DNA of 64,000 nucleotides from an uncultured Chloroflexia bacterium (GTDB taxonomy: Bacteria > Chloroflexota > Limnocylindria > Limnocylindrales > CSP1-4). The stretch covers positions 1-64,000 of the forward strand of contig CAVYBU010000019.1 of assembly GCA_963766735.1 (NCBI GenBank), read 5' to 3'. Below the pieces are notes generated by a model that was not told the DNA's origin, did no database searches, and saw nothing but the letters and a program-made list of their open reading frames with translations. Every line of letters begins with the position of its first letter. Position 1 is the first letter of the stretch. Below are positions 4,710 to 29,100 of the stretch, piece by piece. The position numbers were made by a program, and so were the translations under genes.

Positions 4710-4733
4710 GGCGTGACTATTACCAGATGCGCG

Positions 4734-7941
<3,208 letters not shown>

Positions 7942-7983
7942 GGGCCCAATCTAAGGCGGCGGGGAGAGCTGCGCAAACGACAG

Positions 7984-9470
7984 TCAGAACCAACGTTTGG
8001 AGAGCGCGAGCACCGCGATCAGCACGAAGACCAGGAGCACAAATGCCCAGAGGATGCGCCCCGGGAAGGGGCTGCCGGGCGGGGAGGCGTCGCCTCATCC
8101 CCGAGCTCGTCGAGCAGTTGACGCGCACGCGCCTCGGCCAGGCGCCCGACGCGAAACAGCACCATGCTGACCATGAGGCCGATGAGCAGGATCGCAGCCG
8201 CGGCCTGCCAGCGCCGCGCTCTTGCTCCCCTTGCCGGGTCTCGCCCGTACCGATGGTTGCGCTCGTCGCGGGTCCTATCGCGACGACGTTGGAGCTCGGG
8301 ATGGCAAGCAAGGCGCGCCAGAGGTCGTCCGCAGCGGCCTCGGGAGGCGCGCCCTCGATGATCGCCACCGCAAGCGGGTCGAGCCCATCGTGGTCCGCCT
8401 CCTCCAGAACGGCGTCGGCGGCCTGTCGCACCGGACCCGGTCCATCCGGATCGACGACGACCGCGTACGACACGCCGGCCGTATTGTCCGAGAAAAGGTC
8501 CGCACGAATCTGAAGCCGCCAGACGCCGGGGCCGAGACCCGGCAAGTGAGGATCCTGGGAGAAAGCGAGAACGCGTGCATCCACCGGCGACCCTGGAAGA
8601 CGTCGACCAGAACGGGTGTGCGGCCACCGAGCTGGTCCCACTCGACCTCGATGCGCCCGTCTACCGTAGACGCCCTGGCCACGATGCCGCCCGGCACGAC
8701 GGGGAGGCGTACCTCGCGCGCGGCGACGACGACACCATCGTCATCGAGCGCCTCGACCTCGACGCGCCCTTCATTCCCCGCGACCACGAGGGGAAACCGC
8801 GCAAGCCCGTTCGACGACGGAGTCGGGCTCGCCACGACGCGAACCCCAGCCAGCGGACGGATTTGCACGGAGACCGATTCGCCCGCCACCCAGACCGACA
8901 ACCAGCAGGTCAGGTCGGGCACGCACGCACCTTCTTCCACGCGCGGGTCTAGGGTCGTGATCCGGTGGCTGGGGTCTAACACGCGCATCGGCCCGCTTCA
9001 TAACCCTGGAACACTGTGACGGCGCGACCCTTGGGCCAGCGCGACTCGATCGCTTCCCGTACATAGAGGGGTCGCTCGACCGACACCCGACGGCCGTCGA
9101 TCTCGGCGTGTGCGATGAGCGTGAGAACCTCGTCGCGCCCGCTCGGAACCTGGATCCCCCCCTCCAGACCTTGCACCAGCGACTTCGTCAAATCGGTTTT
9201 CGCGAGCACCAGGCCAGTCGCAGTGCGAAGTTCGATCACGACGGCGGGCGCGGCGATGACGGTGTATCCGTCCGCGTCTTGATCGACCTGCCACGCGCGA
9301 ACACCAATCGTCGCCCCGGGACGCGCAACCAACGGCGCACTCAAACGAAGATCGGGAACCGCGGCCGGAGCGTCGGCCATCCACAGCGCCGCGAGGATCA
9401 ACGCGACGATCAAAGGCGACATTCGGATCGCCCATGCAAAACCGTTGAATTGGCTGTCCTTTGTGCTCAT
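7984..9470 (-). CDS. Hypothetical membrane-anchored protein with beta-rich extracytoplasmic region (multiple frameshifts)
   Basis: Stitched from ORFs 8976..9482, 8275..8988, 7634..8641 and 8019..8627. N-terminal TM/signal and two C-terminal TM helices ending LWAFVLLVFVLIAVLALSKRWF*. Confidence 0.55.
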
Positions 9471-9525
9471 GGGGATGGACAAGTTTGGGATGTTACCTTA
9501 GGAACGGTTGGGGTATAGAGCGCGA

Positions 9526-9984
9526 ATGGGAGCCACCGCCGAACACGACGTCGAGCAACTCCGTGCTCGTTTGAACGACTACATGGCCAAGCATGGCCTG
9601 CGGTCGACCGAGCAGCGGCGTCTGGTGACCGACATGTTTTTTTCGACCACCGAGCATCTCTCCATCGAGGACCTGCTCGATCGGGTGCGCGTCGAAGAAC
9701 CCAAAATCGGATACGCAACGGTGTACCGGACACTCAAGCTCCTCAAGGAATGCGGCCTCGCGTTCGAGCGCCACTTCGGTGACGGCGTATCCCGCTATGA
9801 GGTCGCTTGGGCAAATGAGCACCACGACCACCTCATCTGCCTCGAATGCGAGAAGATCCTCGAGTTCGAAGACGAGGCCATCGAAGTCCTGCAGCACAGC
9901 GTGGCCGAGCGGCTTGGGTTCGAGCTCGTACGCCACAAGCTCGAGCTCTATGGGCTCTGCGCCGACTGCAGAGCCAAGCGTTAG
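9526..9984 (+). CDS. fur: Fur-family transcriptional regulator
   Basis: GLRSTEQR, HLSIEDL, IGYATVYRTLKLL, HHDHLICLEC and C-terminal CADC. Confidence 0.9.
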   Translation: MGATAEHDVEQLRARLNDYMAKHGLRSTEQRRLVTDMFFSTTEHLSIEDLLDRVRVEEPKIGYATVYRTLKLLKECGLAFERHFGDGVSRYEVAWANEHHDHLICLECEKILEFEDEAIEVLQHSVAERLGFELVRHKLELYGLCADCRAKR

Positions 9985-10020
9985 GCCTGGTAGCGGAATG
10001 TGAGGCCCCGTAGAGGGGCG

Positions 10021-11873
<1,853 letters not shown>

Positions 11874-11998
11874 GTAAGCCTCCAGTGTTCGATCCGGTCA
11901 CCCTCTGGCTCGCCTTGATTACGCGAGAAGGCCCTGATGGATGCCAGGTGTAAGAAATTTTGGGGGCAGTGCCGCGTTGGGTCAAGTCGGCGGTCGCC

Positions 11999-12976
11999 CT
12001 AATCGGCTGTGAGGTCCTTCACAAACTCGCCAATTCGCTGGATCGCCCTGCGCCCTTCCTCGAGCATCGGGGCAAACACATGCCACGCGTGAATCATGTC
12101 CGGCCACACTTCGAGCTGGACGTCGACACCGGCCGAGCGGGCCGCTTCCGCACAACGAAGGTTGTCATCCAGCAAGGTTTCCGCGGCGCCTACCTGAATC
12201 AACAGCGGTGGAAGCCCCGTCATGTCGGCGTGGACCGGCGACACTAAAGGGTTACGATGCTCCGCAGCGGGGGCGAAGCGCTTGGCCATCGAGCGGATGC
12301 CGAGACGCGTGACGAAGTCGTAGTGCCTGTTCGATTGCATGGAGGTGCTGCGCGGGTCCAGGTCTAGCCAGCCCGAAATCAGCACGCCACCGGCGGGCAA
12401 GGGAAGGCCGGCGTCGCGAAGCGAGACGAGTGTCGACAGGGTCAGACCCGCACCGGCGGACTCGCCACCGAGGACGATGTGGTCGGGGTGAATCCCCTGC
12501 TCCTCGATCAACCACAGATAGACGCGATGGGAATCCTCGAGTTGCGCCGGGAAAGGATGCTCGGGCGCGAGCCGATAGTCTGCGGCCAGCACGCGCATGC
12601 CGCTCGCGATGCAGAGGCGCGCCAGGAAATCGCGATGCGAATTGATCGAACCGGTCGAGTACCCGCCGCCGTGAAAATAGAGCAAGACGCGATCGGGATC
12701 GCTGTCGGGTTGGGAGAACCACTCCGCTGACACCCCACCCGCATCGAGTGGCCGCATGTCGACGGCCCGCATCGGCGCGGTCACGGGTCGCGGGGGATCG
12801 ATCACGCGCCGCTGAATCTGAAGAGGCAGGACCGTGGAGAGGCTCGCCGATCGCCGCAGCACCTCCGCCACCGTCTCGAGCTCGAGTGTCCAAGTAGGTC
12901 GCCGAGGCCCAAAAACCGCCCGCCGCGCCCGAATCACAGGCTTCAACCCATCCATCATCATGCGAATCAAGTTCAC
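11999..12976 (-). CDS. Alpha/beta hydrolase, hormone-sensitive-lipase (family IV) esterase
   Basis: HGGGY oxyanion motif, DYRLAPEHPFPA, GESAG nucleophile, catalytic His in DMIHAW. Confidence 0.92.
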   Translation of the reverse strand: MNLIRMMMDGLKPVIRARRAVFGPRRPTWTLELETVAEVLRRSASLSTVLPLQIQRRVIDPPRPVTAPMRAVDMRPLDAGGVSAEWFSQPDSDPDRVLLYFHGGGYSTGSINSHRDFLARLCIASGMRVLAADYRLAPEHPFPAQLEDSHRVYLWLIEEQGIHPDHIVLGGESAGAGLTLSTLVSLRDAGLPLPAGGVLISGWLDLDPRSTSMQSNRHYDFVTRLGIRSMAKRFAPAAEHRNPLVSPVHADMTGLPPLLIQVGAAETLLDDNLRCAEAARSAGVDVQLEVWPDMIHAWHVFAPMLEEGRRAIQRIGEFVKDLTAD

Positions 12977-13022
12977 GCCGCCAACCTAACACGCCGAAAA
13001 AGGGTTGAGCGTCGGAGAATTA

Positions 13023-13054
13023 GCCCTTTCTAAAAGGGGTCAGGCCGCTTTTTT
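13023..13054. repeat. REP-like palindrome AAAAGGGGTCAGGCC(G)CTTTT, copy 1
   Basis: Same core as 16552-16582; lies in the divergent esterase/argS intergenic region. Confidence 0.5.
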
Positions 13055-13071
13055 CTGGTAAGCCTGCGGCG

Positions 13072-14831
13072 ATGTTGGTGGTGCGGTATTTGGAGTCGTT
13101 GGGGGCTGAGGCCATTGCGGAGGCCTTGGGGCTCGATGGGCCGCGCGCGGCGATCGTTCGGCCGACGACGGACGCGAAGTTTGGCGACTTTCAAATCAAT
13201 GGCGCCATGCCGCTCGGCAAGGAGCTCGGGAAGCCCCCACGCGAGCTCGCCCTGCCTATTGCAGCCGCGTTGGCAGACATCGATTCGATCGAGAAGGCGG
13301 AGGTCGCGGGGCCGGGCTTCATCAATATCCATCTGGCGCCCTCGTGGGTCGCCTCGAAACTCACCGAAGCGCTTCGGGATGCCGCGCGCGACGGCGTGCC
13401 GACGGTGGACGAGATTTCGAAGATCATCGTCGACTTTTCGAGCCCGAACATCGCCAAGCAAATGCACGTCGGCCACCTTCGCTCGACGATCATTGGGGAT
13501 GCGATCGCACGGATCTTGTCGTTCATGGGGCACGACGTGGTGCGCGATAACCATCTCGGCGATTGGGGAACTCAGTTTGGCCTGTTGATCGTCGGCATGC
13601 GCGAGTGGGGTGACGAGGACGCCCTACGGGCGACACCGATCCCGGAGCTCGAGCGAGTCTATAAGCTCGCGTCCGAGCGGGCTGGCACGGACGAGACCTT
13701 TGCCGAACGCGCGCGGGCGGAATTGGCGAAGCTTCAAAGTGGCGATGAACAGAATCGCGTCTTGTGGGAGCACTTCGTCGAGGTGAGCCGCGGATCACTC
13801 GAGACGGTGTATCGCGAGCTCGACGTGTCGTTCGATGTGTGGCTCGGCGAAAGCGCCTACCACGAGGCCCTTCCTGGGGTGGTGGAGGACCTTCTCGAGC
13901 GTGGCATCGCTCGCGAGGACGACGGCGCCGTCTGTATCTTCTGGGGGGAGCTCGACAAGACCCCCAAGTCACTGCGCAAACAGAAGACTCCGTTCATCGT
14001 GAGAAAGAAGGACGGCGCGTTTCTCTACTCGACCACTGACATCGCTACCGTCCAGCACCGCAAAAACCACTTCAAAGCGGATCGCGCACTTTACGTCGTC
14101 GACAACCGCCAAGGCCTCCATTTTCAGCAGCTGTTCGCGGTGATGAGGTTGCTCGGCACCGAAATCGAGCTCGAACACATCGGCTTCGGCACCGTGCTCG
14201 GCAACGACGGAAAGCCTCAAGAACGCGGGACGCGAGCGGCCAGGTCATCACGCTCGCTTCGTTGCTCGAAGAGGCCAAAGAGCGTGCACAGCAGCGAATC
14301 GAGGAGGGGATCGCCGAGGGGCGCCTTCGAGTTCGGCCGAACGAAATGCGGGAGGTCTCTCGGATCGTGGGTATCGGCGCTGTGAAGTACGCCGACCTTC
14401 GCCAGAACCGACTGAGCGACTACCAGTTCGACTGGGACAAGATGATCTCGTTCCAAGGCGACTCGGGCTCATACCTGCAATACGCGTACGCGCGCTGTGC
14501 CTCGATATTCGCGAAGGGTGAAGTCGACATGGACGAGGTGGCCTCGCGCGCGACGATCATGCTCGATGCGCCCACCGAACGCACCCTCGGCAAACACCTT
14601 CTGCGATTCAGCGATGTCGTTTACCAAGCGGGCGCGACGAGTCAGCCGCATCTGATATGCGAGCACATCTACGAGCTGGCGCGCGCCTTCAACGGTTTCT
14701 ATGCCGAGTGCCCGGTGCTCGACACGGAGGGCGCCACGAGAGAAAGTCGACTCGGGCTCACGGCCTTGACGGCACGGCAGATTCGCCGCGGGCTCGGGCT
14801 CGTCGGGATCGGCGTCGTCGATCGCATGTAG
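13072..14831 (+). CDS. argS: Arginine--tRNA ligase (frameshift near 14220)
   Basis: FGDFQ, AGPGFIN, VDFSSPNIAKQMHVGHLRSTIIGD, GDWGTQFG, GAVKYADL, YLQYAYAR, C-terminal DRM. Confidence 0.96.
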
Positions 14832-14888
14832 TGAAAATCGCTGTATTCCCCGCCGATGGAGTCCGGATGTGCTATGCGAAGCCCGCCA

Positions 14889-15888
14889 ATGAAGGGTCGG
14901 GTCGTTCGAACATCCCATGAAAGCCAGTGTCTGAGCGGCAACCCGCTCGGAGACCCGCACGAACGCGATCTGTACGTGTATCTGCCGCCCGGATACGACG
15001 GAGCACGTCGCTTCCCGGTGGTGATGGTGCTTGCCGGTTTCGGGGCGACCAATCATTCGATCGCAGCGTGGAGCCCGTGGAAGCCAAACACGATCGAACT
15101 CTTCGACCAACTCGTCGCTGAGGGCCGATGCAAGCCCGCGATTCTCGTGCTGCCCGACTGCTTCAATCGATGGGGCGGCTCGCAGTTCATCGATTCAGAG
15201 GGAACAGGTCGCTATCAAACCTACCTCGCTGACGAGGTGTTCGCGTTCGTGGATGCCGAGTTTCAAACGATTCCCGACCGCGAAGCGCGAGGTGTCGTCG
15301 GTCGCTCGTCCGGCGGATTCGGAGCCCTGCGACTTGGGATGGACCGGCCCGACGTGGTATCGGTGATTGGGAGTCACGCGGGCGACGCGGGTTTCGAGGT
15401 CAGCATGCGGCCCATGCTCACCAGCGCCGCGATCGCGATCGATCTGGCGGGCGGCCTCCGGCCGTTTGCCGAAGAGATCCCCGTCAGCGGCCCCAACGAC
15501 GCGAGGCAGTTCGATGCGATCTTCGTCCTTGCCGCCGGGGCCGCGTATTCCCCGGACACGACCGATTTTCCGTACGCGCACATTCCGATGGATCCGGCCA
15601 CCGGAGAAGCTCCGCGCGGAGGTGTGGTCGAGGTGGCTCGAACAGGACCCGGTTCGGCGGATCGACGCCTCGATCGCCGCTTTGCGAGCGATGTCGCTTA
15701 TTTACGTCGACGCAGGCAGCAGGGATGAGCACGGGCTACACTTCGCTGCACGCAGGCTCAACGACGAGCTCTCCAAGCGAGGGTTGCCCGTTCACTACGA
15801 CGAGTACGAAGGCGGACACCGGGGCACCTCCTGGCGTTACGAGGTTTCGCTGCCGCAAATCGTTGAAGCACTTCGAGGATCCGAATGA
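14889..15888 (+). CDS. Putative esterase, Fes/enterochelin-esterase-like alpha/beta hydrolase (frameshift near 15605)
   Basis: NPLGDP..R...VYLPPGY, GGSQFIDS, GRSSGGFGA, C-terminal DAGSRDE and YEGGH. Confidence 0.85.
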
Positions 15889-16553
15889 CGACCAAAGACC
15901 ACAGCACCGAAGAAGAGAAAGACAAGAAGGCTCGGAAGGGCGGCAAGAAGGGTGCTGGCGGTGGTGCCGTCGCGGCAGCGCAGAAGATCCTCGCGGACGA
16001 AAGCCCGCAGTCGAAGATCGCGGAGCATGGCGAGACCATGATGGAAGGCCCGCGAACGGCGGCCACACAGTCGGCCCGTGTGCTGAGTGAGGTCATCGCG
16101 GCGAAGCCTGAGCTCGTAGTGCCGTTGGTAGCCAAGTTCGCCAGAGGCGTGTCGTCCTCCAACAAACGGGTGGTTCAAACGTCAGCCGAAGCACTACCCG
16201 CCATCGCGCGCATCGCACCCGCCCGCGTGGCCCGCCAACTCGACGTCCTGAAGGGCGCGTTCGCGCAAGCAAACGAAGTGGGCAAGGATGGCCTGGTGAA
16301 GACGTTCGCTGCACTGTGCACCGCCTCGGTGGCGTACCAGAAGCGACTCGAGCCGGTCCTGACTCTCGCCCTCACCGGCGCGGACGGGAAGACGCTCTTT
16401 GCCTGGAGTCAGATCGTGCTCCCCGCACTCAAGGGCGAGCCCCACGCACGAGCCCGCGCCGTCGTCGAAGAACGACTCGATTTGATCCCGCGGTCGTACG
16501 CACAGGAGATCGCCGACTTCCTCGGCATCAAACTGCGCATACGCTACCGCTGA
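15885..16553 (+). CDS. Hypothetical all-helical (HEAT/ARM-like) protein
   Basis: ATGA overlap with the esterase; amphipathic helical repeats. Confidence 0.65.
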   Translation: MTTKDHSTEEEKDKKARKGGKKGAGGGAVAAAQKILADESPQSKIAEHGETMMEGPRTAATQSARVLSEVIAAKPELVVPLVAKFARGVSSSNKRVVQTSAEALPAIARIAPARVARQLDVLKGAFAQANEVGKDGLVKTFAALCTASVAYQKRLEPVLTLALTGADGKTLFAWSQIVLPALKGEPHARARAVVEERLDLIPRSYAQEIADFLGIKLRIRYR

Positions 16554-16582
16554 AAAGGGGTCAGGCCCCTTTTTAGAAGGGC
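16552..16582. terminator. REP-like palindrome copy 2, probable bidirectional terminator
   Basis: AAAAGGGG-TCAGG-CCCCTTTT between convergent genes. Confidence 0.6.
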
Positions 16583-16590
16583 CAATCGGC

Positions 16591-17841
16591 TCATCGGAGG
16601 ATGGAAGGCTCGTAGCCCTCGGGGCGATCGTATCCGAGCAGCTGCAACGTCGTCGCGGAGACGTTGGCGATGCCAGGATGGCGCACCTCGTCGTTGAGGC
16701 TCAGGCCATCGCTGCCGGGGACGTACACGAAGCAAGGGACGGCGTTGAGGGTGTGGCTGGTCTTGTTCCTCAGGTGCCCGGTCGCATCGCGTTTGAAGTC
16801 ACCCGACTTCTTGTCGAGCTCGAACATCTCGTCGCAATTCCCGTGATCGGCAGTCACGATGAGCGCGCCGTTGAGTCTCTCGATCACGGGAATGAGGCGC
16901 GCCAGCGAAAGGTCGACCGCCTCGACGGCGATCACCGATGCATCGAGGTTTCCCGTGTGACCTACCATGTCTCCGTTGGCGTAGTTGATCCGCCCATGCC
17001 GCATGCCACCGCGGTGAAGCGCCGCGAGAGTCGCGTCGGTGATTTCCGCCGCCTTCATCCAAGGACGCTGCTCGAACGGAATCACGTCGCTCGGCACCTC
17101 GACGTACTCCTCGTACATCGGGTCGAACATCCCCGTGCGATTGCCGTTCCAGAAGTACGTCACGTGTCCGAACTTCTGCGTCTCGCTGCACGCAAACTGG
17201 CTCACCTGATTGCGCGCCAGGTACTCCCCCATCGTGCGGTCGATCTTGGGCGGCTGGACGAGGTAGTGACGGGGCAGTTTGAGGTCGCCGTCGTACTCCA
17301 TCATGCCCACGAACTCGACGTCTGGAATGGTTCCGCGGTCGAACGCGCTGAGCTCCGGTTCGGTGAACGCACGGGTGAGCTCGAGCGCGCGGTCACCACG
17401 GAAGTTGAAGAGAACTACAGAAGCTCCGTCGCGGATCGCGCCCACTGGGTTGCCTTCGCCATCGACGACGACGAAGCCGAGGAGGTCTTGGTCGATCATC
17501 CCCACGTTCTCGTCGCGAAGGGTCTTGATCGCCTCGGTGGCGCTTGCAAAGCCCCTGCCCTCGCCTAGCACGTGGTGCTTCCAGCCACGTTCGACCATCG
17601 ACCAGTCTGCGCCGTAGCGATCCATCGTGATGAACATGCGGCCACCGCCGGACGCAATTCGATAGTCTCGCCCGCCCTGCTCATTGAGATCGTGCAACAC
17701 ATTCTCGAGCGCCTCGACGTATTCGAGTGCACTCGTCTCGGGCACGTCGCGACCGTCGAGCAAGATATGGACCCGCACGCGCTGCACGCCTTCGTCGTTG
17801 CAGCGTCGCAGCATGGCGAACAGGTGCTCGATGTGGCTGTG
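16591..17841 (-). CDS. gpmI: 2,3-bisphosphoglycerate-independent phosphoglycerate mutase, N-terminus missing (cut at junction)
   Basis: HSHIEHL, LLDGRDVP, NFRGDRA, SETQKFGHVTYFWNGN, NGDMVGHTG, TADHGN, TSHT. The expected upstream SDG.V and the catalytic GNSE region are absent. Confidence 0.93.
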   Translation of the reverse strand, partial: HSHIEHLFAMLRRCNDEGVQRVRVHILLDGRDVPETSALEYVEALENVLHDLNEQGGRDYRIASGGGRMFITMDRYGADWSMVERGWKHHVLGEGRGFASATEAIKTLRDENVGMIDQDLLGFVVVDGEGNPVGAIRDGASVVLFNFRGDRALELTRAFTEPELSAFDRGTIPDVEFVGMMEYDGDLKLPRHYLVQPPKIDRTMGEYLARNQVSQFACSETQKFGHVTYFWNGNRTGMFDPMYEEYVEVPSDVIPFEQRPWMKAAEITDATLAALHRGGMRHGRINYANGDMVGHTGNLDASVIAVEAVDLSLARLIPVIERLNGALIVTADHGNCDEMFELDKKSGDFKRDATGHLRNKTSHTLNAVPCFVYVPGSDGLSLNDEVRHPGIANVSATTLQLLGYDRPEGYEPSILR

Positions 17842-17850
17842 CCTGCCCGG
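17835..17850. other. Junction between two unrelated genomic segments (probable chimera/mis-assembly)
   Basis: gpmI (-) and a GT-C gene (+) are both truncated here; GC step; diderm markers left, monoderm markers right. Confidence 0.85.
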
Positions 17851-18757
17851 CCAGGCGATCTCGAACGCGCTGTCGGTCACGGGCTTCGACATCTTCGCCT
17901 GGAACGACCCGCCCACCCTGTCCCGCTACCTGGCGGTGGGCCCGGCCCGCCTGCTGGAGATGCGCGTGGAGGGGCTGGGGCACAACATCGGCAACGTCCT
18001 GCTGTTCCTGGGGATCCCGGTCTCCGTGATCGGCCTGCTGGCGCTGCCGTGGCAGGCGCGGGACCGGGCGCTGCGTCCGGTGGTCCTGGTGGGCCTGGCG
18101 ACCTTCCTGGTCACCAGCCTCCTGTTCCCCGTCGCCACCACGTGGGGCACGTTCCTCCACGCGGCCGCCCCGATCCACGTGCTGCTGATCATCTCGGCGC
18201 TGGGGGCGCTGGACGCCGGCCTCGCGCGGCTGGGGCGACGGCTGGGCTGGACGCGACCGGTGGCCTGGCTGGGAGCACTCCTGACCGTGTTCGCGTCCTT
18301 CCTGTTCTCGGCGGCGCTGCTGCCCGCCTTCACGTGCGGCGGCGCAGGCGCCACGGCGCGAACCTACGCCGTGCTCGCCCGGCAGATGGCCGCGATCGGC
18401 GCGCCGCTGGACGGTTCCGCACCCGTGATCCACGACTTCCCGATCTGGCTGGCGGAGACGGCCCGGGTCCCGGTGCTCGCGCTCCCGGACGAGACCCCGG
18501 CGGACGTCCTGGACCTGGCCACGGATCCCCGGTTCGGTGCCCGGTGGCTCATCGTGGCCAAGCCCGACCACGGCGCCTGGCCGGCGATCCTCGACGGGTC
18601 GGAGCCGATGGCCAGGTGCTTCCGGGAGGTCCGGCTGCCCGTCCCGGACGACCCGGCGGACGCGAAGGCCATCGAGGGCGTGCGGGTCTTCCGCATCGGC
18701 TGCGACGGCCTGGCCACCGGATCCGAGGCAGTCGGCGCGGCGCTGCGCTCGCCGTAG
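17843..18757 (+). CDS. C-terminal part of a polytopic membrane protein, probable GT-C (ArnT/PMT-like) glycosyltransferase, 5'-truncated
   Basis: LPGQAISNALSVTGFDIFAWNDPPT..., several TM helices and a soluble C-terminal domain; no start codon or RBS after the junction. Confidence 0.55.
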   Translation: MPGQAISNALSVTGFDIFAWNDPPTLSRYLAVGPARLLEMRVEGLGHNIGNVLLFLGIPVSVIGLLALPWQARDRALRPVVLVGLATFLVTSLLFPVATTWGTFLHAAAPIHVLLIISALGALDAGLARLGRRLGWTRPVAWLGALLTVFASFLFSAALLPAFTCGGAGATARTYAVLARQMAAIGAPLDGSAPVIHDFPIWLAETARVPVLALPDETPADVLDLATDPRFGARWLIVAKPDHGAWPAILDGSEPMARCFREVRLPVPDDPADAKAIEGVRVFRIGCDGLATGSEAVGAALRSP

Positions 18758-18783
18758 CCGCGGCACGGACTACACTCGGCACG

Positions 18784-19882
18784 ATGGATGGCCCCCGGAA
18801 CGACGCGTCGAACACCCGGTTCGACAAGCTGCACGCCGAGGCGGCGGAGGCACTGACCTACGCCGCGAACACGCTGCGCGCCGTGCGGGACCGCTACCGG
18901 CAAGCGTACCTGGAGGACCTCGCCCGCTGGGAGGCCCTGGCGGACGAGCTCGGCGCGCTTGAACACGGAGACGACGGTCGCCAGGATCCGGCCGACCCTT
19001 CCAGCGACGGGAATGCGGCCACTGGCGGCGGAGGCCGGCGCGGCAGACCGGCGGCTGCGCATGGTCCGGGGCGAGGTGGACCGCTCCCGGAAGGACCTTG
19101 CCGGCCACGAGGGCGAGCTGAGCCGGCTGGAGCTGGCGATCCGCAACCTCGAGAGCACGTGGCTGTTCCTGGAGCGCGGGGACGCCTCGCTGATCACGGA
19201 TCCGGCCCTGCCGGCCCTGCCCGCGGAACTCCGGATGCGGATCGTGGAGGCCCAGGAGGCCGAACGGGCGCGCCTGGCCCAGGAGGTCCACGACGGGCCG
19301 GCCCAGGCGCTCTCGAGCGCGATCTTCCAGGTGGATTTCATCGAGCGGATCTTCGAAACGGACAGGCCGATGGCCCGCCAGGAGCTGCGGTTCCTGAGGG
19401 ATCTGCTCCGCCGGGAGCTGGGTGACGTGCGCAGCTTCATCGGCCATCTGCGCCCACCCGTGCTCGAGGAGCTGGGCCTGGACGGGTCCATCATGGACAC
19501 GGTGGCCACGCAGGCCTCACTCTCCGGGCTGCACATCGCGGCCGACCTGACTGCGCCCGCCGGCAGCCTGCCGGAGCCCGCCCAGACGGTCGTGCTGCGC
19601 GTGGTGCAGGAAGCGCTCCAGAATGTGCGCAAGCACGCGGCTGCCGCGAACGTGGTGGTCACGACGGGGCTGGACGATGGACAATGGGTGCTGGAGGTCC
19701 GGGACGATGGTCGCGGCTTCGACACCGGAGCGGTGGCGGCCCGTGGCCGCCGCAACTTCGGCCTCCAGTTCATGCGGGAGCGGGCCGAGCTGATCGGTGC
19801 GCGGTTCGAAGTGCGGTCGCGGACCGATGCCGGCACGGTGGTCCGGCTGGCGATCCCGGTGACGCAAAAGGAGAGCGGATGA
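18784..19882 (+). CDS. DegS-like soluble sensor histidine kinase (HisKA_3 + HATPase_c; frameshift near 19020)
   Basis: N-terminal coiled coil with no TM. H-box QEVHDGPAQAL, N-box QEALQNVRKHA, G1 DDGRGF, G2 FGLQFMRERAEL. Confidence 0.88.
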
Positions 19883-20619
19883 CCGAGTACGAGGGGCCTG
19901 AGCGCCGTCGATCCGGCCAGGAGCGGCGGACCGCTTATGAGCAGGTACAGATCCTGATCGTGGACGACCACGCGCTGTTCCGCGTGGGCATCCGCCAGAT
20001 CCTGGAGCAGGAGCCCGACTTCGAGGTCGTCGCCGAGGCGGACGACGCGCGGACGGCCATCGACGCCGCGTTCGCCACCAACCCGGACATCATCCTGATG
20101 GACCTCTCGCTGCCCGCGCCCGGCGGCATCGAGACCACGCAGCGTGTCAAGCGGGAGCTCCCCGCGGCCGCCATCGTGGTCCTGGCCCACGAGGAGGACG
20201 AGGATGCCCTGTTCGAATCCATCAAGGCCGGGGCGGCCGCGTTCATCCTCAAGGACATCGCCCCGGAAGACCTGGTGATGGTCATCCGCCGCGTGGTGGC
20301 GGGCGAGTACCTGATCAACGACAAGGTCTTCAGCAAGCCGGCCGTCGCCTCCCGCGTGCTCAAGGAGTTCCGCGAGCTGGCGGTCTACGGCCAGGAGGCC
20401 GCCCCCATCTTCGCGCCGCTCTCGCCGCGCGAGGTGGAGATCCTGGACAACATCGCCCAGGGCATGACCAACAAGCAGGTCGCCTACGCGCTCTCGATCA
20501 GCGAGCAGACGGTCAAGAACCACATGAGCTCCATCCTGCGCAAGCTCTCCGTCAACGACCGGACCCAGGCCGTGGTGTACGCGATGCGCCAGGGCTGGAT
20601 CCGGATGCCGGAGGACTGA
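19879..20619 (+). CDS. DegU/NarL-family response regulator (REC + LuxR HTH)
   Basis: ILIVDDHALFRVG, DIILMDL, GAAAFILKD, LSPREVEIL...GMTNKQVAYALSISEQTVKNHMSSILRKL; ATGA-coupled to the kinase. Confidence 0.93.
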   Translation: MTEYEGPERRRSGQERRTAYEQVQILIVDDHALFRVGIRQILEQEPDFEVVAEADDARTAIDAAFATNPDIILMDLSLPAPGGIETTQRVKRELPAAAIVVLAHEEDEDALFESIKAGAAAFILKDIAPEDLVMVIRRVVAGEYLINDKVFSKPAVASRVLKEFRELAVYGQEAAPIFAPLSPREVEILDNIAQGMTNKQVAYALSISEQTVKNHMSSILRKLSVNDRTQAVVYAMRQGWIRMPED

Positions 20620-20654
20620 TCCGCTCGCTGCGTCCCGGGGGGCTCCACCGCCCG

Positions 20655-21828
20655 ATGACCACGCCCGAAACAGCGCCCGACGGCCCGGGGTCCGCCCTCG
20701 TGGCCCAGCTGCACGCGGACCTGGCCACGCTCGACCGCGAGCTGGCCGAGATCGACATGCTCGTCGGGCAGGCCAGGACGGAGGCCGCCCGGCACGAGCA
20801 GAAGCGGGCGCAGGCCGCCGAGCGGCTCGGGCCGGCACGCCGGACGAGCCGGCCGATCCGAGGACGCCTCGGACGCCTGGGCGAGCCTGGTGACGATGAC
20901 CCGGCGCGCCGTGCTGATGGAGGCGCAGGTCGACCTGCTCGACGGCAAGCGGAAGGCCCTGGCGCGACACCGGGCGGCGATCGCGGACGTGCTGGCGGCG
21001 ATCGAGCAGGTGCCGGGGGACCCGCGCCGAGGCGCGGGCGGCGGACGCCGAGGAGGCCCTGTCCCCGTCGCTCTCCCGGGTGGTCCTCACCGCCCAGGAG
21101 GACCTCCGCCGGGAGATCGCTCGGGCGATGCACGACGGACCGGCGCAGTCCCTCACCAACATCGTGCTCCAGGCGCAGATCGTGGAGCGGCTCCTGGAGC
21201 GGGACCCGTCCCGGGCCAGGAGCGAGCTGCAGCTGCTGGTGTCGATGGTCCAGCAGACGCTGGACGCCACCAAGAGCTTCATCTTCGACGTCCGGCCGAT
21301 GGTGCTGGACGACCTGGGCCTGGTGCCCACGCTCCGGCGCGCCGCCCGGGACCGCGGGCAGCGGGCGCACGTCCCCGTGGAGTTCGAGTCCCTGGGCCAG
21401 GACCGGCGCCTGCCCATGGAGGTGGAGAGCGCGGTCTTCCGGATCCTGGACGAGGCGCTGGCCGCCTACCTGTCGCTCACCCCGGAGCGGATCGCTCCTG
21501 CGCCTGGACTGGACCGACGAGCTGGAGGCCCGGCTCACCGCGCATCACGCAGCCGTGGACCCCACCGGTGAGGCGCTGCCGGCCGTGCCGACCGGCGATG
21601 TCCCGGACGCCATCAAGCAGATGATCCAGGACCGCCACGACGCACGCGCGGCCGCGGACGCCGCGGCCGAGGAGGCAGCCATCATGGTCCTGCCGGCTCC
21701 CGTGCGCCGCGACATCGGCGAGCGCGCCGGCATCCATCGGGGCGACGGTGGAGGTGCTGGCGGGCGGCGGCGAGATCCGGCTGGTGGTCCCGCTGCCGCC
21801 GGCGGGAGAGGCGGGCGCCGAGGCATGA
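20655..21828 (+). CDS. Second DegS-like protein with intact H-box but degenerate ATPase domain (several frameshifts)
   Basis: MHDGPAQSLTN and RPMVLDDLGLVPTLRR present; N-box reads DEALAAY and no DxGxG is seen. Confidence 0.75.
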
Positions 21829-21989
21829 CGGAGCGGTCCGGGACCGGCGAGCCGGGACCCGGGATCCTGGAGACGTCTCTCGTGCTGGGGCTGGCGGTGC
21901 TGCTGGCGGCCGCGATCCTCGTGTTCTTCGGCGGGCCGTTCGCGGACCTGATGGGCATCGTGGTGGACGCCGCCCACGGCGGACGCTGA
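21825..21989 (+). CDS. Divergent Flp-like pilin / small membrane protein (54 aa)
   Basis: MTERSGTGEPG|PGILETSLVLGLAVLLAAAILVFFGG: Gly followed by Glu at +5 and a hydrophobic helix; ATGA overlap with the upstream gene. Confidence 0.55.
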   Translation: MTERSGTGEPGPGILETSLVLGLAVLLAAAILVFFGGPFADLMGIVVDAAHGGR

Positions 21990-22113
21990 GCCCGGGCGAA
22001 CCGGTCCCGTGGGATAGGACCATCGTCCCATTGGCGATGACGAGGCGAACCTCTACTTTGCAGGTCGGCCCCCTTGCATTCTGGGCCGCGGCATTATCTC
22101 GGGAGGTTCGTCC

Positions 22114-22284
22114 ATGGCCCTCATCAACGCGCTGCTCGCCTCGTTCCGCACGGACGAGGAGGGCCAGGGTCTCGCGGAGTACGCGCTGATCCTCGCGCTC
22201 ATCGCCATCGTGGCCATCGTCGCCCTGATCTTCCTGGGCGGCCAGGTCTCGACGATCCTGTCGACCGTCGGCAACTCCGTCTAG
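22114..22284 (+). CDS. flp: Flp-family type IV (Tad) pilin, copy 1
   Basis: GGAGG RBS; MALINALLASFRTDEEG|QGLAEYALILALIAIVAIVALIFLGGQVSTILSTVGNSV* (below ORF-track cutoff). Confidence 0.93.
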   Translation: MALINALLASFRTDEEGQGLAEYALILALIAIVAIVALIFLGGQVSTILSTVGNSV

Positions 22285-22303
22285 CGCGTCCGCTCTCCAG
22301 CGG

Positions 22304-22336
22304 ACGAAGGCCGCCGGCTCGTCCGGCGGCCTTCGT
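22304..22336 (+). terminator. Hairpin terminator after flp copy 1
   Basis: ACGAAGGCCGCCGG-ctcgt-CCGGCGGCCTTCGT perfect 14-bp stem. Confidence 0.7.
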
Positions 22337-22422
22337 GCGTCCGGGCAACGGTTCTTCGGCACGGCGCCCGGCTTCCACGCTGCCGGGTGACCGTCGGCCT
22401 GCCCAGGTGCGGTCCAGTGGAG

Positions 22423-22452
22423 TTGACACCCGCCGAGCCGTCGGCATACCGT
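22423..22452 (+). promoter_or_regulatory. Sigma70-type promoter of flp copy 2
   Basis: TTGACA-N18-TACCGT, followed by AAAGGAGGT RBS. Confidence 0.5.
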
Positions 22453-22505
22453 CCGCATCGCCGCGCTCATTCGGCGGACTCTGACGGAAAGGAGGTACCA
22501 CCCAC

Positions 22506-22678
22506 ATGACGCTTATCAACGCACTCATCTCGCGCTTCTCGAGCGACGAGGAGGGCCAGGGTCTCGCGGAGTACGCGCTGATCCTCGCGCTCATCGCCAT
22601 CGTCGCGATCGTCGCCCTGATCTTCCTGGGCGGCCAGGTCTCGCACGATCCTGTCGACCGTCGGCAACTCCGATCTAG
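22506..22678 (+). CDS. flp: Flp-family pilin, copy 2 (two 1-nt insertions near the 3' end)
   Basis: MTLINALISRFSSDEEG|QGLAEYALILALIAIVAIVALIFLGGQVS..; nucleotide core nearly identical to copy 1. Confidence 0.9.
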
Positions 22679-22906
22679 CTCCGACTCGCCAATCGTCGCC
22701 GGCCGCCGGCTGCCGCTACCTGGCAGCCGGCGTCGCTGTTCTCCGGCGGTTCCCCGGCGCACCGGGCGGACCATCGGAGGGGTTGCGCATCGGCGAGCGG
22801 GCGTTACCGTATGCAGATGTCCGGGGGCGGTACGCGAGATCTCGCGCATCGCTGCATCAGGCAACCCGGACCGGGCATCTTGCCCGAGAAGGAGGTGATC
22901 GCAGCC

Positions 22907-23087
22907 GTGCTGACCAAGTTCACGGCCCTGGCGGGTTCGATCGTCCGTCGCGACGACGAGGACGGTCAGGGACTCGCGGAGTACGCACTCATCCTGGCGC
23001 TCATCGCCATCGTCGCCATCGTCGCCCTGATCTTCCTGGGCAGCCAGATCAGCGACAAGCTCAGCGTCAGTCGGCGACGCGCTCTAG
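22907..23087 (+). CDS. flp: Flp-family pilin, copy 3 (1-nt frameshift near the 3' end)
   Basis: AGAAGGAGGT RBS; MLTKFTALAGSIVRRDDEDG|QGLAEYALILALIAIVAIVALIFLGSQISDKLSV/VGDAL*. Confidence 0.9.
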
Positions 23088-23109
23088 CGGCGTCCGGCAC
23101 TCATTCGGC

Positions 23110-23138
23110 AAGCCCGCCGGGTCATCCCGGCGGGCTTT
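23110..23138 (+). terminator. Hairpin terminator after flp copy 3
   Basis: AAGCCCGCCGGG-tcat-CCCGGCGGGCTTT. Confidence 0.7.
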
Positions 23139-23336
23139 CCATTTCCGCGGGGCATGCCGGGCGAGCTGACGGCATGCGGCATCCCGGCACGATGGCGTCC
23201 CTTGCAGGGCACCTTACGATGAACAGCGCATCCGCCCATTTCCTCCCAAGGGTCCTAGCCCTATTGGTTGGTCGTCGGGCGATTTCGCGGTGCTAGAGTG
23301 TTGCCACCTGTCACACGACCTCGGGGAGATACATCT

Positions 23337-24261
23337 TTGAAACGCTCGAATCGGTTGGTCCTGCTAATCGGGATCTTCCTCGCAATCGTTGCCTTCGTCC
23401 TCGTCTTCATGACGCTGCAAGGCGGTGGATCCACCACCGGCAACCAGAGCGATCCCGGCCTCAGGGAGGTCAACGTCGTCATCGCGGCGAAGGACATCCC
23501 GCTCGGCGCGAAGTTCACGTCGGACTCGGTGACGACCAAGGTCTTCAAGGTCGCCGACAAGCCCACGGACAGCTACGGCGACCCGGCGCAGGTCGTCGGC
23601 CAGACGGCGCGCCAGCCCGTCACGAACGGCCAGCTCATCACGAGCACGATCCTCTACGGCTCCAGCCAGGGCATCACCAGCCTCGACGGTGCCGGCGGGC
23701 AAGGTCGGCATCGCGGTCCAGGTGGACCAGGTGTCCGGCGTGGGCACGCTGACCAAGGCCGGCGACAACGTGGACATGCTGGTGGCCCTCACCGGGGACA
23801 AGTTCCCGGTGGTGACCGTCAACCCGGACGACCAGTCCATCACCGTCGTCTCCGGCATCAACTCCACCAGCGTCAAGCTCCTGCTCCAGGGCGCCCAGGT
23901 GATCGGGACGCTGCTGCCGCCGCCGCCGGCGGACACCGGCAACAACACCGAGGCGGAGCCCGGCACGGATGCCGGCGCACCGACGAACCTCAACGGCCAG
24001 CAGCAGATCGTGATCCTCGCGGTCGACGCCCAGCAGGCCGAGATCGTCAAGTACGCCCAGCTCGACGGCAGCATCTCGCTGGTGCTGCGCAGCGCGGACG
24101 ACTTCCGCGACCCGGTGACCGGTGAGCCGCTGGACCCGGAGCTGATCGTGCCGGTCCAGACGACGGGCGTCACGCTCCGGTCCCTCGTGGACAACAACGG
24201 CGTGCTGGTGCCGGAGCTGGTCGAGGCGATCCTCCCGGCGCAGGCGACGCCGGCGCCGTAA
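23337..24261 (+). CDS. cpaB: Flp pilus assembly protein CpaB/RcpC (frameshift near 23688)
   Basis: N-terminal TM, SAF domain VVIAAKDIPLG...VVGQTARQPVTNGQLIT, then PAGKVGIAVQVDQVSGVG...GDNVDML. Confidence 0.88.
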
Positions 24262-24391
24262 CGCCGTGAGGGCCGATGGCCCGCACGCCGCGCGAGCCCG
24301 GGACGGGCCGGTTGACCCCGGCTCATCCCGGTCGCACCAATCCCGCACACCGCTGACACCAACCCAGGCCCCGAGGTCGATCCACCACCAT

Positions 24392-25663
24392 ATGGCAGAC
24401 CAGATCCGCGTTCTCATCGTCGACGACATCCCGGAGACCCGCGATCACCTCGCGAAGCTGCTCGGCTTCGAGACGGACATCGAGGTCGTCGGGAGCGGCG
24501 GCGTCCGGGCGCGAGGCACTCGAGATGGCCGCGCGGCTGACGCCCGACGTCGTCCTCATGGACATCAACATGCCGGACATGGACGGCATCGCCGCCACGG
24601 AGCACCTGGCGGCCGAGGTCCCGACCACGGCCGTCGTGATGATGTCCGTGCAGGGCGAGGCGGACTACCTCCGCCGGTCCATGCTGGCCGGCGCGCGCGA
24701 GTTCCTGGTCAAGCCCTTCTCCTCCGACGAGCTGACGTCGTCCATCCGGCAGGTCTACACCCGCGAGCGCGACAAGCTCTCCCGGATCGCCCTCCAGCCC
24801 GCCGCGCCGGCGACGCGCCGGCGGCCATGGCCGCCACGCCCGCAGGCCCGCGACGGACAGCGAGCCCGGCCGCGTGGTGGCGGTGTTCGGGCCCAAGGGC
24901 GGCGTCGGCCGGACGACCCTCGCGGTCAACCTGGCGGTCGCCGCAGCCACCGAGCTCGGCCAGCGCACGTGCCTCGTGGATGCCTCGTTCCAGTTCGGCG
25001 ACGTGGGCGTCCTGCTCAACCTCAACCCCAAGAACAAGTCCGTCGCGGACCTCATCCCGGAGCTGGAGAGCGGCGAGACCGAGTCGCTCGACACGTTCCT
25101 CATCAACCACTCCGCCGGCATCCGGGTGCTGCTGGCCCCGCCGTCACCCGAGATGGCCGAGCTCATCACGCCGCATGGCGCCAAGCGCATGATCGAGGCG
25201 CTGCGCGTGTCCCACGACCTGGTGGTCGTGGACTGCATGTCGTCCTTCAACGACACCACGCTCGCCATCCTGGATCTCGCCGACACCGTCCTCACGATGC
25301 TGTCGCTCGAGATCACGTCGATCAAGAACATCCGCCTCTTCCTGGAGGTGGCCGAGCAGCTCGGGCTACGGGTCGGACAAGGTCCGGCTGGTGCTGAACC
25401 GCGCCGACTCGTCGCTGGGCATCCGCGTCGCGGACGTGGAGCACTCGATCGGGCGGCGCGTGGATCACACGATCGTCTCCGACGGTCGGAGCGTCGTGTA
25501 CGCGCTCAACCGGGGAGTGCCGTTCTTCCTGTCAAACCGCGAGGCGCAGGTGTCCCAGGACGTCCTGCGGCTCGCGTCCGCGGTGGCGGGTTCCCGCACC
25601 GCGGAGGCCGGCGAGCCGGCCAAGAAGTCCGCGCAGAAGAAGTCGCTGTTCGCATGGCGATGA
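24392..25663 (+). CDS. cpaE: CpaE/TadZ pilus assembly protein (REC + MinD/ParA-like ATPase; frameshifts)
   Basis: RVLIVDDIPETRDHL, DVVLMDINMPDMDG, GAREFLVKPF, GPKGGVGRTTLAVNLA, VDASFQFGDV, LNRADS, ALNRGVPF. Confidence 0.88.
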
Positions 25664-25710
25664 CGAGGCAGCGAGAGCAAGGGCCGTTCACGGCCAAAGG
25701 GGTGTAGACG

Positions 25711-27122
25711 ATGTCTCTCCTCAAGCGCATCGAGAGCGCCCGTCCCGGCGCCGGGACAGGACCCGAAGGCGGTTCCAACGTCCCCGCGACCGCGCCGGGC
25801 GGGCTCCGGCGGCCAGCCGCCGGCCTCACGGCGGCGGCCGGCTGATGTCCCAGGCCCCGGTCCGCGAGTCGTTCCGGGACGTGAAGTTCCGGATCCAGAA
25901 CCGCGTCATCCAGGACCTGGACCCCAAGCTGGACCTGTCCAACCAGGTCGAGGTCCGCCGGCAGATCGAGGAGATCTTCGGCAAGGTCATCGACGAGGAG
26001 GGCCTCGCCCTCACCCGCGCCGAGCGGGTGCGGATGCTGGAGCAGATCACCGACGAGATCATCGGCCTCGGCCCGCTGGAGCCCCTGCTCCGCGACGAGA
26101 GCATCTCCGAGGTCATGGTCAACGGCCCGCGCCAGGTCTACATCGAGCGCACCGGCCAGCTGGAGCTGACCAACGTCGTCTTCCAGAACGACGACCACGT
26201 GATGCGCATCATCGATCGGATCATCGCCCCGATCGGCCGCCGCGTGGACGAGTCCAGCCCGATGGTGGACGCCCGCCTCACCGACGGCTCGCGCGTCAAC
26301 GCGATCATCCCGCCGCTGTCGCTGGTCGGCCCGGTCGTCACCATCCGGAAGTTCTCGGCCAGCCCGCTCACGGTGGACGACCTGATCCGGTTCGGCACCG
26401 CCACCCCGGAGATGTTCGAGTTCCTGCGCGCGTCCGTCGAGGCCCGCCTCAACGTCTTCGTGTCCGGCGGCACCGGCTCCGGCAAGACGACGACGCTCAA
26501 CGTCCTGTCGTCGTTCATCCCCAACGACGAGCGCATCGTGACGATCGAGGACGCGGCCGAGCTCCAGCTCCGCCAGGAGCACGTGGTGACGCTGGAGTCC
26601 CGCCCGCCCAACATCGAGGGCAAGGGCGCGATCCCGATCCGCGAGCTGGTCCGCAACTCGCTGCGGATGCGGCCCGACCGGATCATCGTCGGCGAGTGCC
26701 GCGGCGGCGAGGCGCTGGACATGCTCCAGGCCATGAACACGGGCCACGACGGCTCGATGTCCACCGGCCACGCCAACAGCCCCCGCGACATGCTGTCCCG
26801 CCTGGAGACGATGGTGCTGATGGCGGGCGTGGACCTGCCGGTGCGCGCCATCCGGGAGCAGATCGCCTCCGCGGTGGACGTCATCGTCCACCAGGCCCGC
26901 CTCAAGGACGGGACCCGCCGGATCACGAACATCACCGAGGTCCAGGGCATGGAGGGTGACGTCATCGTGATGCAGGACGTGTTCGTGTTCGAGCAGACCG
27001 GCGTCGTCGAGGGCAAGATCCAGGGCCGCCTGAAGCCGACCGGCATCCGGCCCAAGTTCGTCGAGAAGTTCGAGGTCCAGGGCATCCACCTGCCGCCGGG
27101 CCTCTTCGGCTTCAGCTACTAG
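25711..27122 (+). CDS. cpaF: Tad pilus assembly ATPase CpaF/TadA (frameshift near 25800-25845)
   Basis: MSLLKRIE start; GLGPLEPLL, SGGTGSGKTT, TIEDAAEL, LRMRPDRIIVGECRG, MNTGHDGSMSTGHAN. Confidence 0.95.
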
Positions 27123-27140
27123 GAAGGCGGGGAGCCCGCC

Positions 27141-28156
27141 ATGGACAACATGACGATCGTCATCGCCGGCATCGCCGCCCTCGCGATCCTCCTGATCGCG
27201 ATCGGGATCGCCATGTCCGGCAGCGGCTCCGGGGTCAACGCCCGCCTCGAGCGCTACGCCTCGGGCAAGCCCGAGAAGGTGGAGACACCGGCGAATGGCC
27301 AGGGCGGCATCGCCGCGGCCATGGCGTCCAGCGCCACCATGACCCAGCTCAACAAGGTGGTGGAGCAGCGCGACTTCGGCGCCAACCTGGCGCGCGAGAT
27401 CGCGCGGGCGGACCTGCGCTCAAGCCCAGCGAGTACCTGATGATCTGGGCCGGCTCCACCGTGGGCGTGCCGCTCCTGATGTTCGTGTTCTCGGTCGCGC
27501 TGCCGACCCTCGGCAACCCGATCATCCTCCTGGTGGGGCTCCTCGTCGGGTTCATGCTGCCGCGCTTCTGGCTGGGCCGCCGGAAGGGCGGGCGCCTCAG
27601 CACGTTCAACAAGCAGCTGCCGGACACGATCACGCTGATCGCCAACGCCCTGCGCGCGGGCTCCTCGTTCCTGCAGGCCATCGAGCTGGTGGTCCGCGAG
27701 TCGCAGCCGCCGATCTCCACGGAGTTCGGCCGCGTCATCCGGGAGGTCAACCTGGGCCTCTCCTTCGAGGTCGCCCTCGAGAACATGGTCCGGCGCGTCA
27801 GGTCCGACGACCTGGAGCTGATGGCCACCGCCATCTCGATCCAGCACACCGTCGGCGGCAACCTGGCCGAGATCCTGGACTCGATCGCGTACACGATCCG
27901 CGAGCGCGTCCGCATCCAGGGCGAGATCCGGACCCTCACCGCGCAGCAGCGCCTGTCCGGCTACGTGGTCGGGTTCCTGCCGATCGGCCTGGCCGGGTTC
28001 CTGTTCATCGCGGCCCCCAGGTTCATGGCGCCGATGTTCGACGACCGGATCTCGATCATCGGGCTGCCGGGCGGGGTGATCATCCTGATGCTGGGCGGCT
28101 TCTCGATGTTCATGGGCTTCATGTTCATCCGCAAAATCGTCGACATCGAGGTCTAG
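27141..28156 (+). CDS. tadB: Tad pilus platform protein TadB (T2SSF domain; frameshift near 27420)
   Basis: FNKQLPDTITLIANALRAGSSFLQA, GGNLAEILDSIAYTIRER, LTAQQRLSG. Confidence 0.9.
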
Positions 28157-28159
28157 CCC

Positions 28160-29092
28160 ATGGAGCCCCTGTCCCTGATCGTGGCGGCCATCGCAGTCGG
28201 CGCCATCCTGATGATCTTCGTCGGCCTGGCCGGCCGCGCCCCGGTGGACCCGGTCCAGGCCCGCCTGACCCAGCTGGGCACCGTCCAGGCGGCCAGACCT
28301 GGAGGAGCTGGAGCTCCAGCAGCCGCTCTTCGACCGCACCATCCGGCCGCTGGCGGACCGGCTGTCCGGGTCGGTCGGCGGGTCACGAGCACCTCCTTCT
28401 CCGCGACAACCGAGAAGCGCCTGGCGCTGGCGGGCAACCCCGGCGACCTGCGCATGGCCGACTGGCTGGGCATCAAGGCCGTCGGCGCGATCGTCGGCGC
28501 CGGCCTGTTCGTGCTGCTGTTCGTGGTCCCCGCCGTGATCAAGGTGTCGTTCCCGATCAACCTCGCGATGATCGCGGTCGGCGTGATGTTCGGCTACACC
28601 GTCCCCGAGTTCTGGCTGGGCGGGCGCATCAAGAAGCGCCAGAAGGCGATCCTGCTCCAGATCCCGGACGCCCTGGACCTGCTCACGATCTCCGTCCGCG
28701 CGGGCCTCGGCTTCGACGGCGCGCTGGGCAAGGTGGTCGAGAAGCTCAAGGGGCCCCTCACCGACGAGTTCCGGCGGGCGCTGGCCGAGATCCGCGTGGG
28801 CAAGGCCCGGCGGGACGCGCTGCGGGACATCGTCGGGCGCACCGAGGTGCCGGCCCTCACCAACTTCATCGGGGCGATCATCCAGGCCGAGCAGCTGGGC
28901 GTGTCGATCAGCAAGGTGCTCCAGGTCCAGTCCGAGCAGCTGCGGATCGAGCGCCGGCAGCGCGCCGAGGAGATGGCGGCCAAGGCGCCGATCAAGATGC
29001 TGTTCCCGCTGGTCGGGTGCATCTTCCCGTCGCTGTTCATCGTCATCCTGGGCCCGGCGATCATCCTGATCATGATCAACCTCACGGTCTGA
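28160..29092 (+). CDS. tadC: Tad pilus platform protein TadC (T2SSF domain)
   Basis: IPDALDLLTISVRAGLGFDGAL, IQAEQLGVSI, RAEEMAAKAPIKMLFPLVGCIFPSLF. Confidence 0.92.
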   Translation: MEPLSLIVAAIAVGAILMIFVGLAGRAPVDPVQARLTQLGTVQAARPGGAGAPAAALRPHHPAAGGPAVRVGRRVTSTSFSATTEKRLALAGNPGDLRMADWLGIKAVGAIVGAGLFVLLFVVPAVIKVSFPINLAMIAVGVMFGYTVPEFWLGGRIKKRQKAILLQIPDALDLLTISVRAGLGFDGALGKVVEKLKGPLTDEFRRALAEIRVGKARRDALRDIVGRTEVPALTNFIGAIIQAEQLGVSISKVLQVQSEQLRIERRQRAEEMAAKAPIKMLFPLVGCIFPSLFIVILGPAIILIMINLTV

Positions 29093-29100
29093 CCGGGGCG

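Follow-up and report, generated by a model that had tools for sequence, protein, structure and literature searches.

The first 64 kb of contig C19 (positions 1–64,000, the whole stretch of DNA analysed here, hereafter called the window) consist of two sequences of different origin that meet at a single point near position 17842. C19 is a 130-kb contig of a genome bin comprising 35 contigs and 3.62 Mb; the sequence to the left of the meeting point resembles that of Polyangiales in the phylum Myxococcota, and the sequence to the right belongs to the bin's own genome. The cut is base-sharp and passes through two genes, namely gpmI, which encodes the 2,3-bisphosphoglycerate-independent phosphoglycerate mutase, on the minus strand of the left block and a gene for a polytopic membrane protein on the plus strand of the right block. 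Where they meet, the two blocks have no sequence in common, and independent contigs from public metagenomes leave the window at 17842. On this comparative evidence, the window is almost certainly an inter-genome chimeric contig and not a product of horizontal gene transfer (HGT), and it most likely arose at a genuine break in the assembly, through a chimeric read or a misjoin.

An earlier interpretation of the window that was made from its letters alone (the sequence-only reading) had preferred a chimeric read or mis-assembly to HGT and had held that the two halves must be interpreted separately. Taxonomic affiliations, composition, the cut genes, duplicate gene copies, synteny, public contigs and 40 genomes of the same genus agree in supporting this preference, and a separate interpretation of the halves is appropriate to DNA of two organisms. 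The relevant features of the window are listed below.

1..17841, no strand: foreign block of Polyangiales/Myxococcota-like DNA with a G+C (GC) content of 0.633, recognized by Pfam matches, colinearity and composition, which occupies the start of the contig
17841..17843, no strand: junction, placed by blastn and by a column view of relatives
17842..64000, no strand: the bin's own genome with a GC content of 0.715, colinear with the same-genus genome G006, with Pfam matches and a GC content as in the other contigs
16594..17841, minus strand: 3′ fragment of gpmI (TIGR01307; Pfam iPGM_N and Metalloenzyme), which begins with HSHIEHL
17843..18757, plus strand: 3′ part of the polytopic membrane-protein gene (304 codons and a stop codon), which is full length in same-genus relatives
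16591..17916, minus strand: artefactual open frame made of the gpmI fragment and 25 codons of antisense right-side DNA up to a GTG
17684..18757, plus strand: artefactual open frame made of the membrane-protein fragment preceded by 53 false N-terminal codons from antisense gpmI DNA

The junction and the two genes cut by it

Positions 17000–18800 of the window were compared by blastn with eight loci of the Polyangiales type and nine loci from the same genus as the bin, all of which had flanks long enough for the alignments to run on. Homology to the Polyangiales-type loci ended at 17841 in six of the eight and at 17842 in the other two, and homology to the same-genus loci started at 17842 in two of the nine and at 17843 in the remaining seven. 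All limits (8/8 on the left and 9/9 on the right) therefore fall within 17841–17843, bearing out the base-sharp junction described in the sequence-only reading. In a column view of the relatives, those of the left block match the window through GATGTGGCTGTG, which ends at 17841, and none of them matches it beyond this point; those of the right block are unlike the window up to 17841 and match it from CTGCCCGGCCAGG. G17841 is the last base of left homology, right homology is beyond doubt from C17843 onwards, and the single base in between (C17842) is shared with two of six right-side relatives and with none of five left-side relatives.

Neither inserted bases, nor microhomology longer than 1 nucleotide (nt), nor an adapter-like insert was seen at the junction in the column view. 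Repeats around the junction were limited to matches of chance size (12–30 nt), no tRNA gene was found in positions 1–30000, and no integrase or transposase family was detected among the flanking frames scanned, a scan that covered only part of the frames. Within these ranges, the earlier statement that the junction is accompanied by no integrase, tRNA or target duplication holds.

The gpmI frame had been described as beginning abruptly at HSHIEHL (17841) with its N-terminal region gone. This description agrees with the NCBIfam profile TIGR01307, which is matched from position 120 to position 497 of its 504 positions, and the fragment lacks ~120 N-terminal residues. Its score (268.7 bits) is lower than the cut-off of this profile (330.65) because the fragment is truncated, and two Pfam families, iPGM_N (positions 40–216 of 217) and Metalloenzyme, were matched above their cut-offs. 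Judged by these profiles, the frame is a true gpmI fragment, i.e. an incomplete gene. Among 42 Myxococcota-type relatives whose match begins at residue 1 of the query, all 42 have at least 139 in-frame codons upstream. The relatives carry conserved N-terminal sequence (...DMGNSEVGHN...GLLSDGNV) directly before HSH, and in the window this place is taken by antisense DNA of the right block. A search of metagenomes for nearly identical relatives of the left side gave at best ~90% amino acid (aa) identity and was used only for this count of gpmI N-termini.

On the other side, homology of the membrane protein begins at LPGQA (17843), and the abrupt start reported for this gene is likewise confirmed, since same-genus homology starts there. 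The fragment matches 15 of the 18 members of the genus that were drawn, with 74–81% aa identity to the nine same-genus loci that were kept (L082–L090) and weaker matches in the genus down to 59%. The full-length same-genus proteins consist of 543–580 aa where the open frames are clean, ~240–280 residues precede LPGQA in these relatives, and two of them (L084 and L090) read in frame from ...FGNP directly into LPGQA. When the N-terminal parts of two relatives were used as tblastn queries (E ≤ 1e-3), no match to the N-terminal half of the protein was obtained in the bin.

Neither the fragment nor a full-length relative of 567 aa had a Pfam or NCBIfam match at E ≤ 0.01, PF13231 included. The nearest ESM Atlas clusters are of the PMT_2 type, PMT_2 being present in 11–98% of their members, and their commonest taxon is Chloroflexota; these clusters provide a lead towards a GT-C-like, PMT_2-type glycosyltransferase. 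The protein, which is conserved in the genus, may represent an unmodelled branch of the PMT_2-type GT-C family.

Gene content, composition and origin of the two blocks

According to Pfam, the left block contains argJ, secA (in pieces), fur, an acyl-CoA dehydrogenase gene (in pieces), an alpha/beta hydrolase gene, argS, an esterase gene, a gene for a 222-aa protein and the gpmI fragment. The 14 best genome matches of the left gpmI (L001–L014) showed 81–91% aa identity, and all 14 loci are labelled as Myxococcales, Polyangiales, Myxococcota or delta proteobacterium. Positions 9456–17841 are colinear with loci L013 and L002 from Polyangiales metagenome-assembled genomes (MAGs) at ~80% nt identity, and the next 8 kb of these two loci past the junction have no counterpart in the bin except for one short conserved match. 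The block was found nowhere else in the bin. In a search of 40 same-genus genomes with positions 8000–17841, none (0/40) held this region, the matches being confined to short conserved stretches of at most 156 nt. Taken by its relatives, the left block is assigned to Polyangiales-like Myxococcota. The bin has its own gpmI (on contig C7), argS (C6), secA (C3) and argJ (C18), which share 36, 30, 50 and 37% aa identity with the left-block copies, respectively; with the left block, these single-copy genes thus occur in a second, divergent copy.

The two blocks also differ in composition. The GC content is 0.633 in positions 1–17842 versus 0.715 in positions 17843–64000, in line with the step-up that had been read from the letters, and that of the bin's other 34 contigs ranges from 0.68 to 0.72. 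A blind search for a GC change point placed the step at 17906, within 65 nt of the junction. Comparison of tetranucleotide profiles, which the sequence-only reading had named as a check, also showed the left block to be deviant: C19:1–8000 and C19:8001–16000 have the third and fourth largest tetranucleotide distances among 435 8-kb segments of the genome (z = 4.4 and 3.8, respectively).

The right block is colinear with G006, a one-contig genome of the same genus: positions 17843–55143 correspond to positions 1367601 down to 1327001 of its contig C1, and the alignment stops exactly at 17843. The continuation of G006 past the junction (1367602–1381700, ~14 kb) has no match in the bin, and beyond this unmatched region G006 continues with the 3′ end of the bin's contig C6. 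Pfam matches in the right block include two pairs of HisKA_3 kinases and LuxR regulators, Tad-type pilus genes (RcpC, T2SSE and T2SSF), a long HPF, MreB, an ATP synthase operon, SHMT and PrfA. Several assignments of the sequence-only reading are thereby confirmed, namely the DegS/DegU system (as HisKA_3 kinases with a LuxR-type regulator), the long HPF and a Tad system without secretin, no secretin having been found in the whole bin.

Omp85, LpxC, LolA and Secretin gave no match in this 93.85%-complete bin, and control genomes do match. The high-GC host of the right block is predicted from this gene content to be a monoderm (single-membrane) organism without outer-membrane genes. WhiB was not found in the bin either, and its absence speaks against a typical actinobacterium. 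A Chloroflexota origin is probable for the right side, the taxa of the ESM Atlas clusters serving as a lead only, and the 'Bacillota-like' character earlier ascribed to it is probably wrong, as the leads point to Chloroflexota. Myxococcota are a diderm group, and the earlier description of the junction as one between a diderm and a monoderm genome stands in substance, given a Myxococcota-like left block and a right block from a bin without outer-membrane genes, but two of the cues on which it had drawn do not. Pfam LolA (PF03548), to which a left-block gene had been ascribed, has no match anywhere in the bin, C19 included, and a search for the proposed sigma54 promoter (TGGCAC-N5-TTGC with at most one mismatch) returned two matches versus 2.69 expected by chance.

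Several further observations concern the genes of the two blocks. The 222-aa protein (15885–16553, plus strand), which is encoded between the esterase gene and gpmI, has no Pfam or NCBIfam family, and a protein of 86% aa identity is encoded in L013. Relative to the Polyangiales relatives, the reading frame switches in secA (~6075, 6620 and 7806), the acyl-CoA dehydrogenase gene (10.0–11.9 kb), argS (which is frameshifted at 14211–14217) and the esterase gene (~15608). In positions 8076–11688, two to four public runs agree on differences of 1–2 nt from the window at 12 listed places; the contexts of these differences are mostly non-homopolymer, and the sequencing platform is therefore not identified by them. 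The 12 differences suggest either consensus errors or strain differences, and the frame switches of the left block are likely to be consensus errors; argS, secA and the genes for the esterase and acyl-CoA dehydrogenase should not be called pseudogenes.

In the right block, the frame switches relative to G006 at ~15 places in 18990–53690, e.g. in the second histidine kinase gene (20676–21731). The rate of such errors was considered as a means of discriminating between the halves and was dropped, since the left block, with at least 7 frame switches over 11.4 kb, is affected as well as the right one (~15 over the 26.5 kb covered), and high-GC stop-free frames can carry errors of the relative itself. 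The assembly seems to be indel-prone overall. Further to the right, positions 57938–63099 encode a corrinoid-dependent methyltransferase set consisting of a B12-binding protein, a pterin-binding methyltransferase and a RACo-type reductive activator, and this cluster adjoins genes for an IclR regulator and an ornithine cyclodeaminase-family protein.

Public metagenome contigs and the assembly break

Public metagenome runs were compared as contigs, a comparison that shows presence and not absence, and the right-side organism is scarce in them. For an 8-kb probe with the junction at its centre, the share of its words that were present was below one half in each of the 22 listed runs and at most 0.39. 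Contigs of four runs from four studies were placed on positions 7843–27842. The left side was covered throughout in all four runs, with several pieces showing 0–2 differences in 480–840 nt. Across the junction, the depth in the four runs was 4.75, 21.7, 7.51 and 5.28 in the last interval on the left and 0.14, 2.54, 1.1 and 0.04, respectively, in the first interval on the right. A spike of right-side cover at 26519–27185 corresponds to a conserved secretion ATPase from other organisms.

Two records from these runs depart from the window at the junction. In X6 record 24 (692 nt, plus strand), letters 1–409 fit positions 17434–17842 and are followed by 283 letters unlike the window. X2 record 10 (4,595 nt, minus strand) fits positions 13449–17842 and has 201 unfitted letters, which would lie beyond 17842; its other end abuts record 9 at 13449–13467. 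No piece bridging 17842 was present among those listed for the four runs. The left cover, together with records that leave the window at 17842, indicates that the left DNA exists with a different continuation where the right-side organism is scarce.

The right side of the junction coincides with a gap in the assembly. Positions 1–30099 of contig C29 are a strain variant of C19:18535–48306 and start 700 bp from the junction, short of the site. The right part of C19 and contig C29 thus end no more than 700 bp apart, next to a region that is missing from the assembly, which marks a genuine assembly break. C29 and C19 are 95.4% identical over 13.7 kb and 98.4% identical over 11.7 kb and diverge more strongly in the middle (81–85%); this duplicate adds to the contamination figure of the bin and shows strain heterogeneity at the locus. 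At the far end of C19, positions 127506–129998 overlap C26:1705–4193 at 96% identity, and a short repeat from this end occurs several times on C8 and C9 (matches of 208–364 nt at 85–91%), possibly as a repeat element at another assembly break.

A second foreign block, C6:1–13808 (L094), is also located at a contig start. The GC content changes from 0.434 to 0.701 near position 13808, and the tetranucleotide z values of the block (14 and 10) make it the strongest outlier in the genome. This block is probably another chimeric join, and the presence of two such blocks in one bin, each at the start of a contig, speaks for a process rather than for biology. The low-GC side of C6 carries genes for an alpha/beta hydrolase and a PEMT-like methyltransferase, and the first gene on the high-GC side is a GGDEF-EAL gene, the EAL domain of which is complete; no gene cut is demonstrated there.

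Explanations of the join and comparison with known systems

We propose that the DNA of two organisms was joined head-on in sequencing or assembly and not in a cell. An assembly break just upstream of 17843 would have left an open contig end, which would have been extended by 17.8 kb from a Polyangiales-like myxobacterium, presumably a member of the same community. One or a few chimeric long reads, in which two molecules had been ligated or read as one, would be the most likely cause, provided that long-read data were indeed used; a gapless join made by the assembler is a less likely cause.

Some points weigh against this explanation. The verdict draws on sequence comparison and on public contigs, and none of the listed runs is apparently the source. 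Public contigs cannot show the continuation of the right side, whose organism is scarce in them, and of the two records that depart from the window only X6 record 24 does so unambiguously at 17842, X2 record 10 having been placed by inference. Frame breaks occur on both sides, and the argument for long reads is indirect. No exact match to the 32 bases that span the junction was obtained in the metagenome contig collection, which is weak evidence either way.

A very recent inter-phylum HGT would require that at least 17.8 kb of Polyangiales housekeeping DNA had entered the membrane glycosyltransferase-like gene of a Chloroflexota-like host by illegitimate end-joining, with one end of the insert assembled. 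The two joined sequences are indeed contiguous in one contig without Ns, and illegitimate joins require no microhomology. However, the cargo would consist of housekeeping genes, with gpmI cut in mid-gene and with no hallmark of a mobile element, and its GC content and tetranucleotide use are unameliorated. Moreover, a nearly identical block occurs in its native continuation in public runs from which the putative host is almost absent, it was found in none of the 40 same-genus genomes, and the other half of the recipient gene is nowhere in the bin. Its location at a contig end, together with the second, unrelated foreign block at the start of another contig, also speaks against a transfer, and we regard HGT as very improbable. 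Even less probable is a graph misjoin through a shared repeat or conserved gene segment, the route by which de Bruijn-graph chimeras typically form. Interspecies chimeric contigs are reported to be common in short-read MAGs, having been present in 444 of 640 near-complete MEGAHIT MAGs from data of the Critical Assessment of Metagenome Interpretation (bioRxiv 10.64898/2026.10.15.759294), but a k-mer bridge would leave tens of shared bases. At the present junction there is no repeat, the homologies abut with at most one shared base, and right up to the join neither side is similar to the relatives of the opposite side.

If the window is a chimeric contig, the join is an artefact that holds no new biology, and its value is practical. 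The contig should be cut at 17841|17842 and positions 1–17841 removed from the genome, as probably should C6 from position 1 to ~13.8 kb. Inferences that link genes across 17842 are void, including the co-occurrence of diderm and monoderm traits in one cell and a second secA, argS or gpmI. Gene callers would deposit the open frames at 16591–17916 (minus strand) and 17684–18757 (plus strand) as proteins with invented N-termini. By marker-based estimates, the bin is 93.85% complete and 4.22% contaminated and passes the thresholds, so such checks miss chimeric joins of the present kind. Inter-genome chimeric contigs are a class of error that is sought by GUNC-type and misassembly checks.

Among known systems, the window resembles a genomic island acquired by HGT in that a block whose composition is foreign adjoins native DNA at a sharp border. 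Unlike such an island, it has no integrase among the frames scanned and no tRNA target or direct repeats at this border, the block consists of core genes, one of which is cut, and it was found in none of the 40 relatives searched. It shares more features with inter-genome chimeric contigs of MAGs, namely two origins, an abrupt change in composition, truncated genes, extra divergent copies of single-copy genes and a foreign part at the contig end. The head-on, homology-free junction of unrelated molecules with kilobases on each side is also like that of chimeric nanopore reads, and chimeric artefacts are named among nanopore-specific problems in the Meta-NanoSim paper (PMC10025935). A difference from such reads is that no adapter-like insert lies at the present junction. 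Finally, unlike the usual graph chimera, which is formed through a repeat or k-mer, the join described here shares at most 1 nt between its sides and is thus better explained by a chimeric read or a blunt concatenation.

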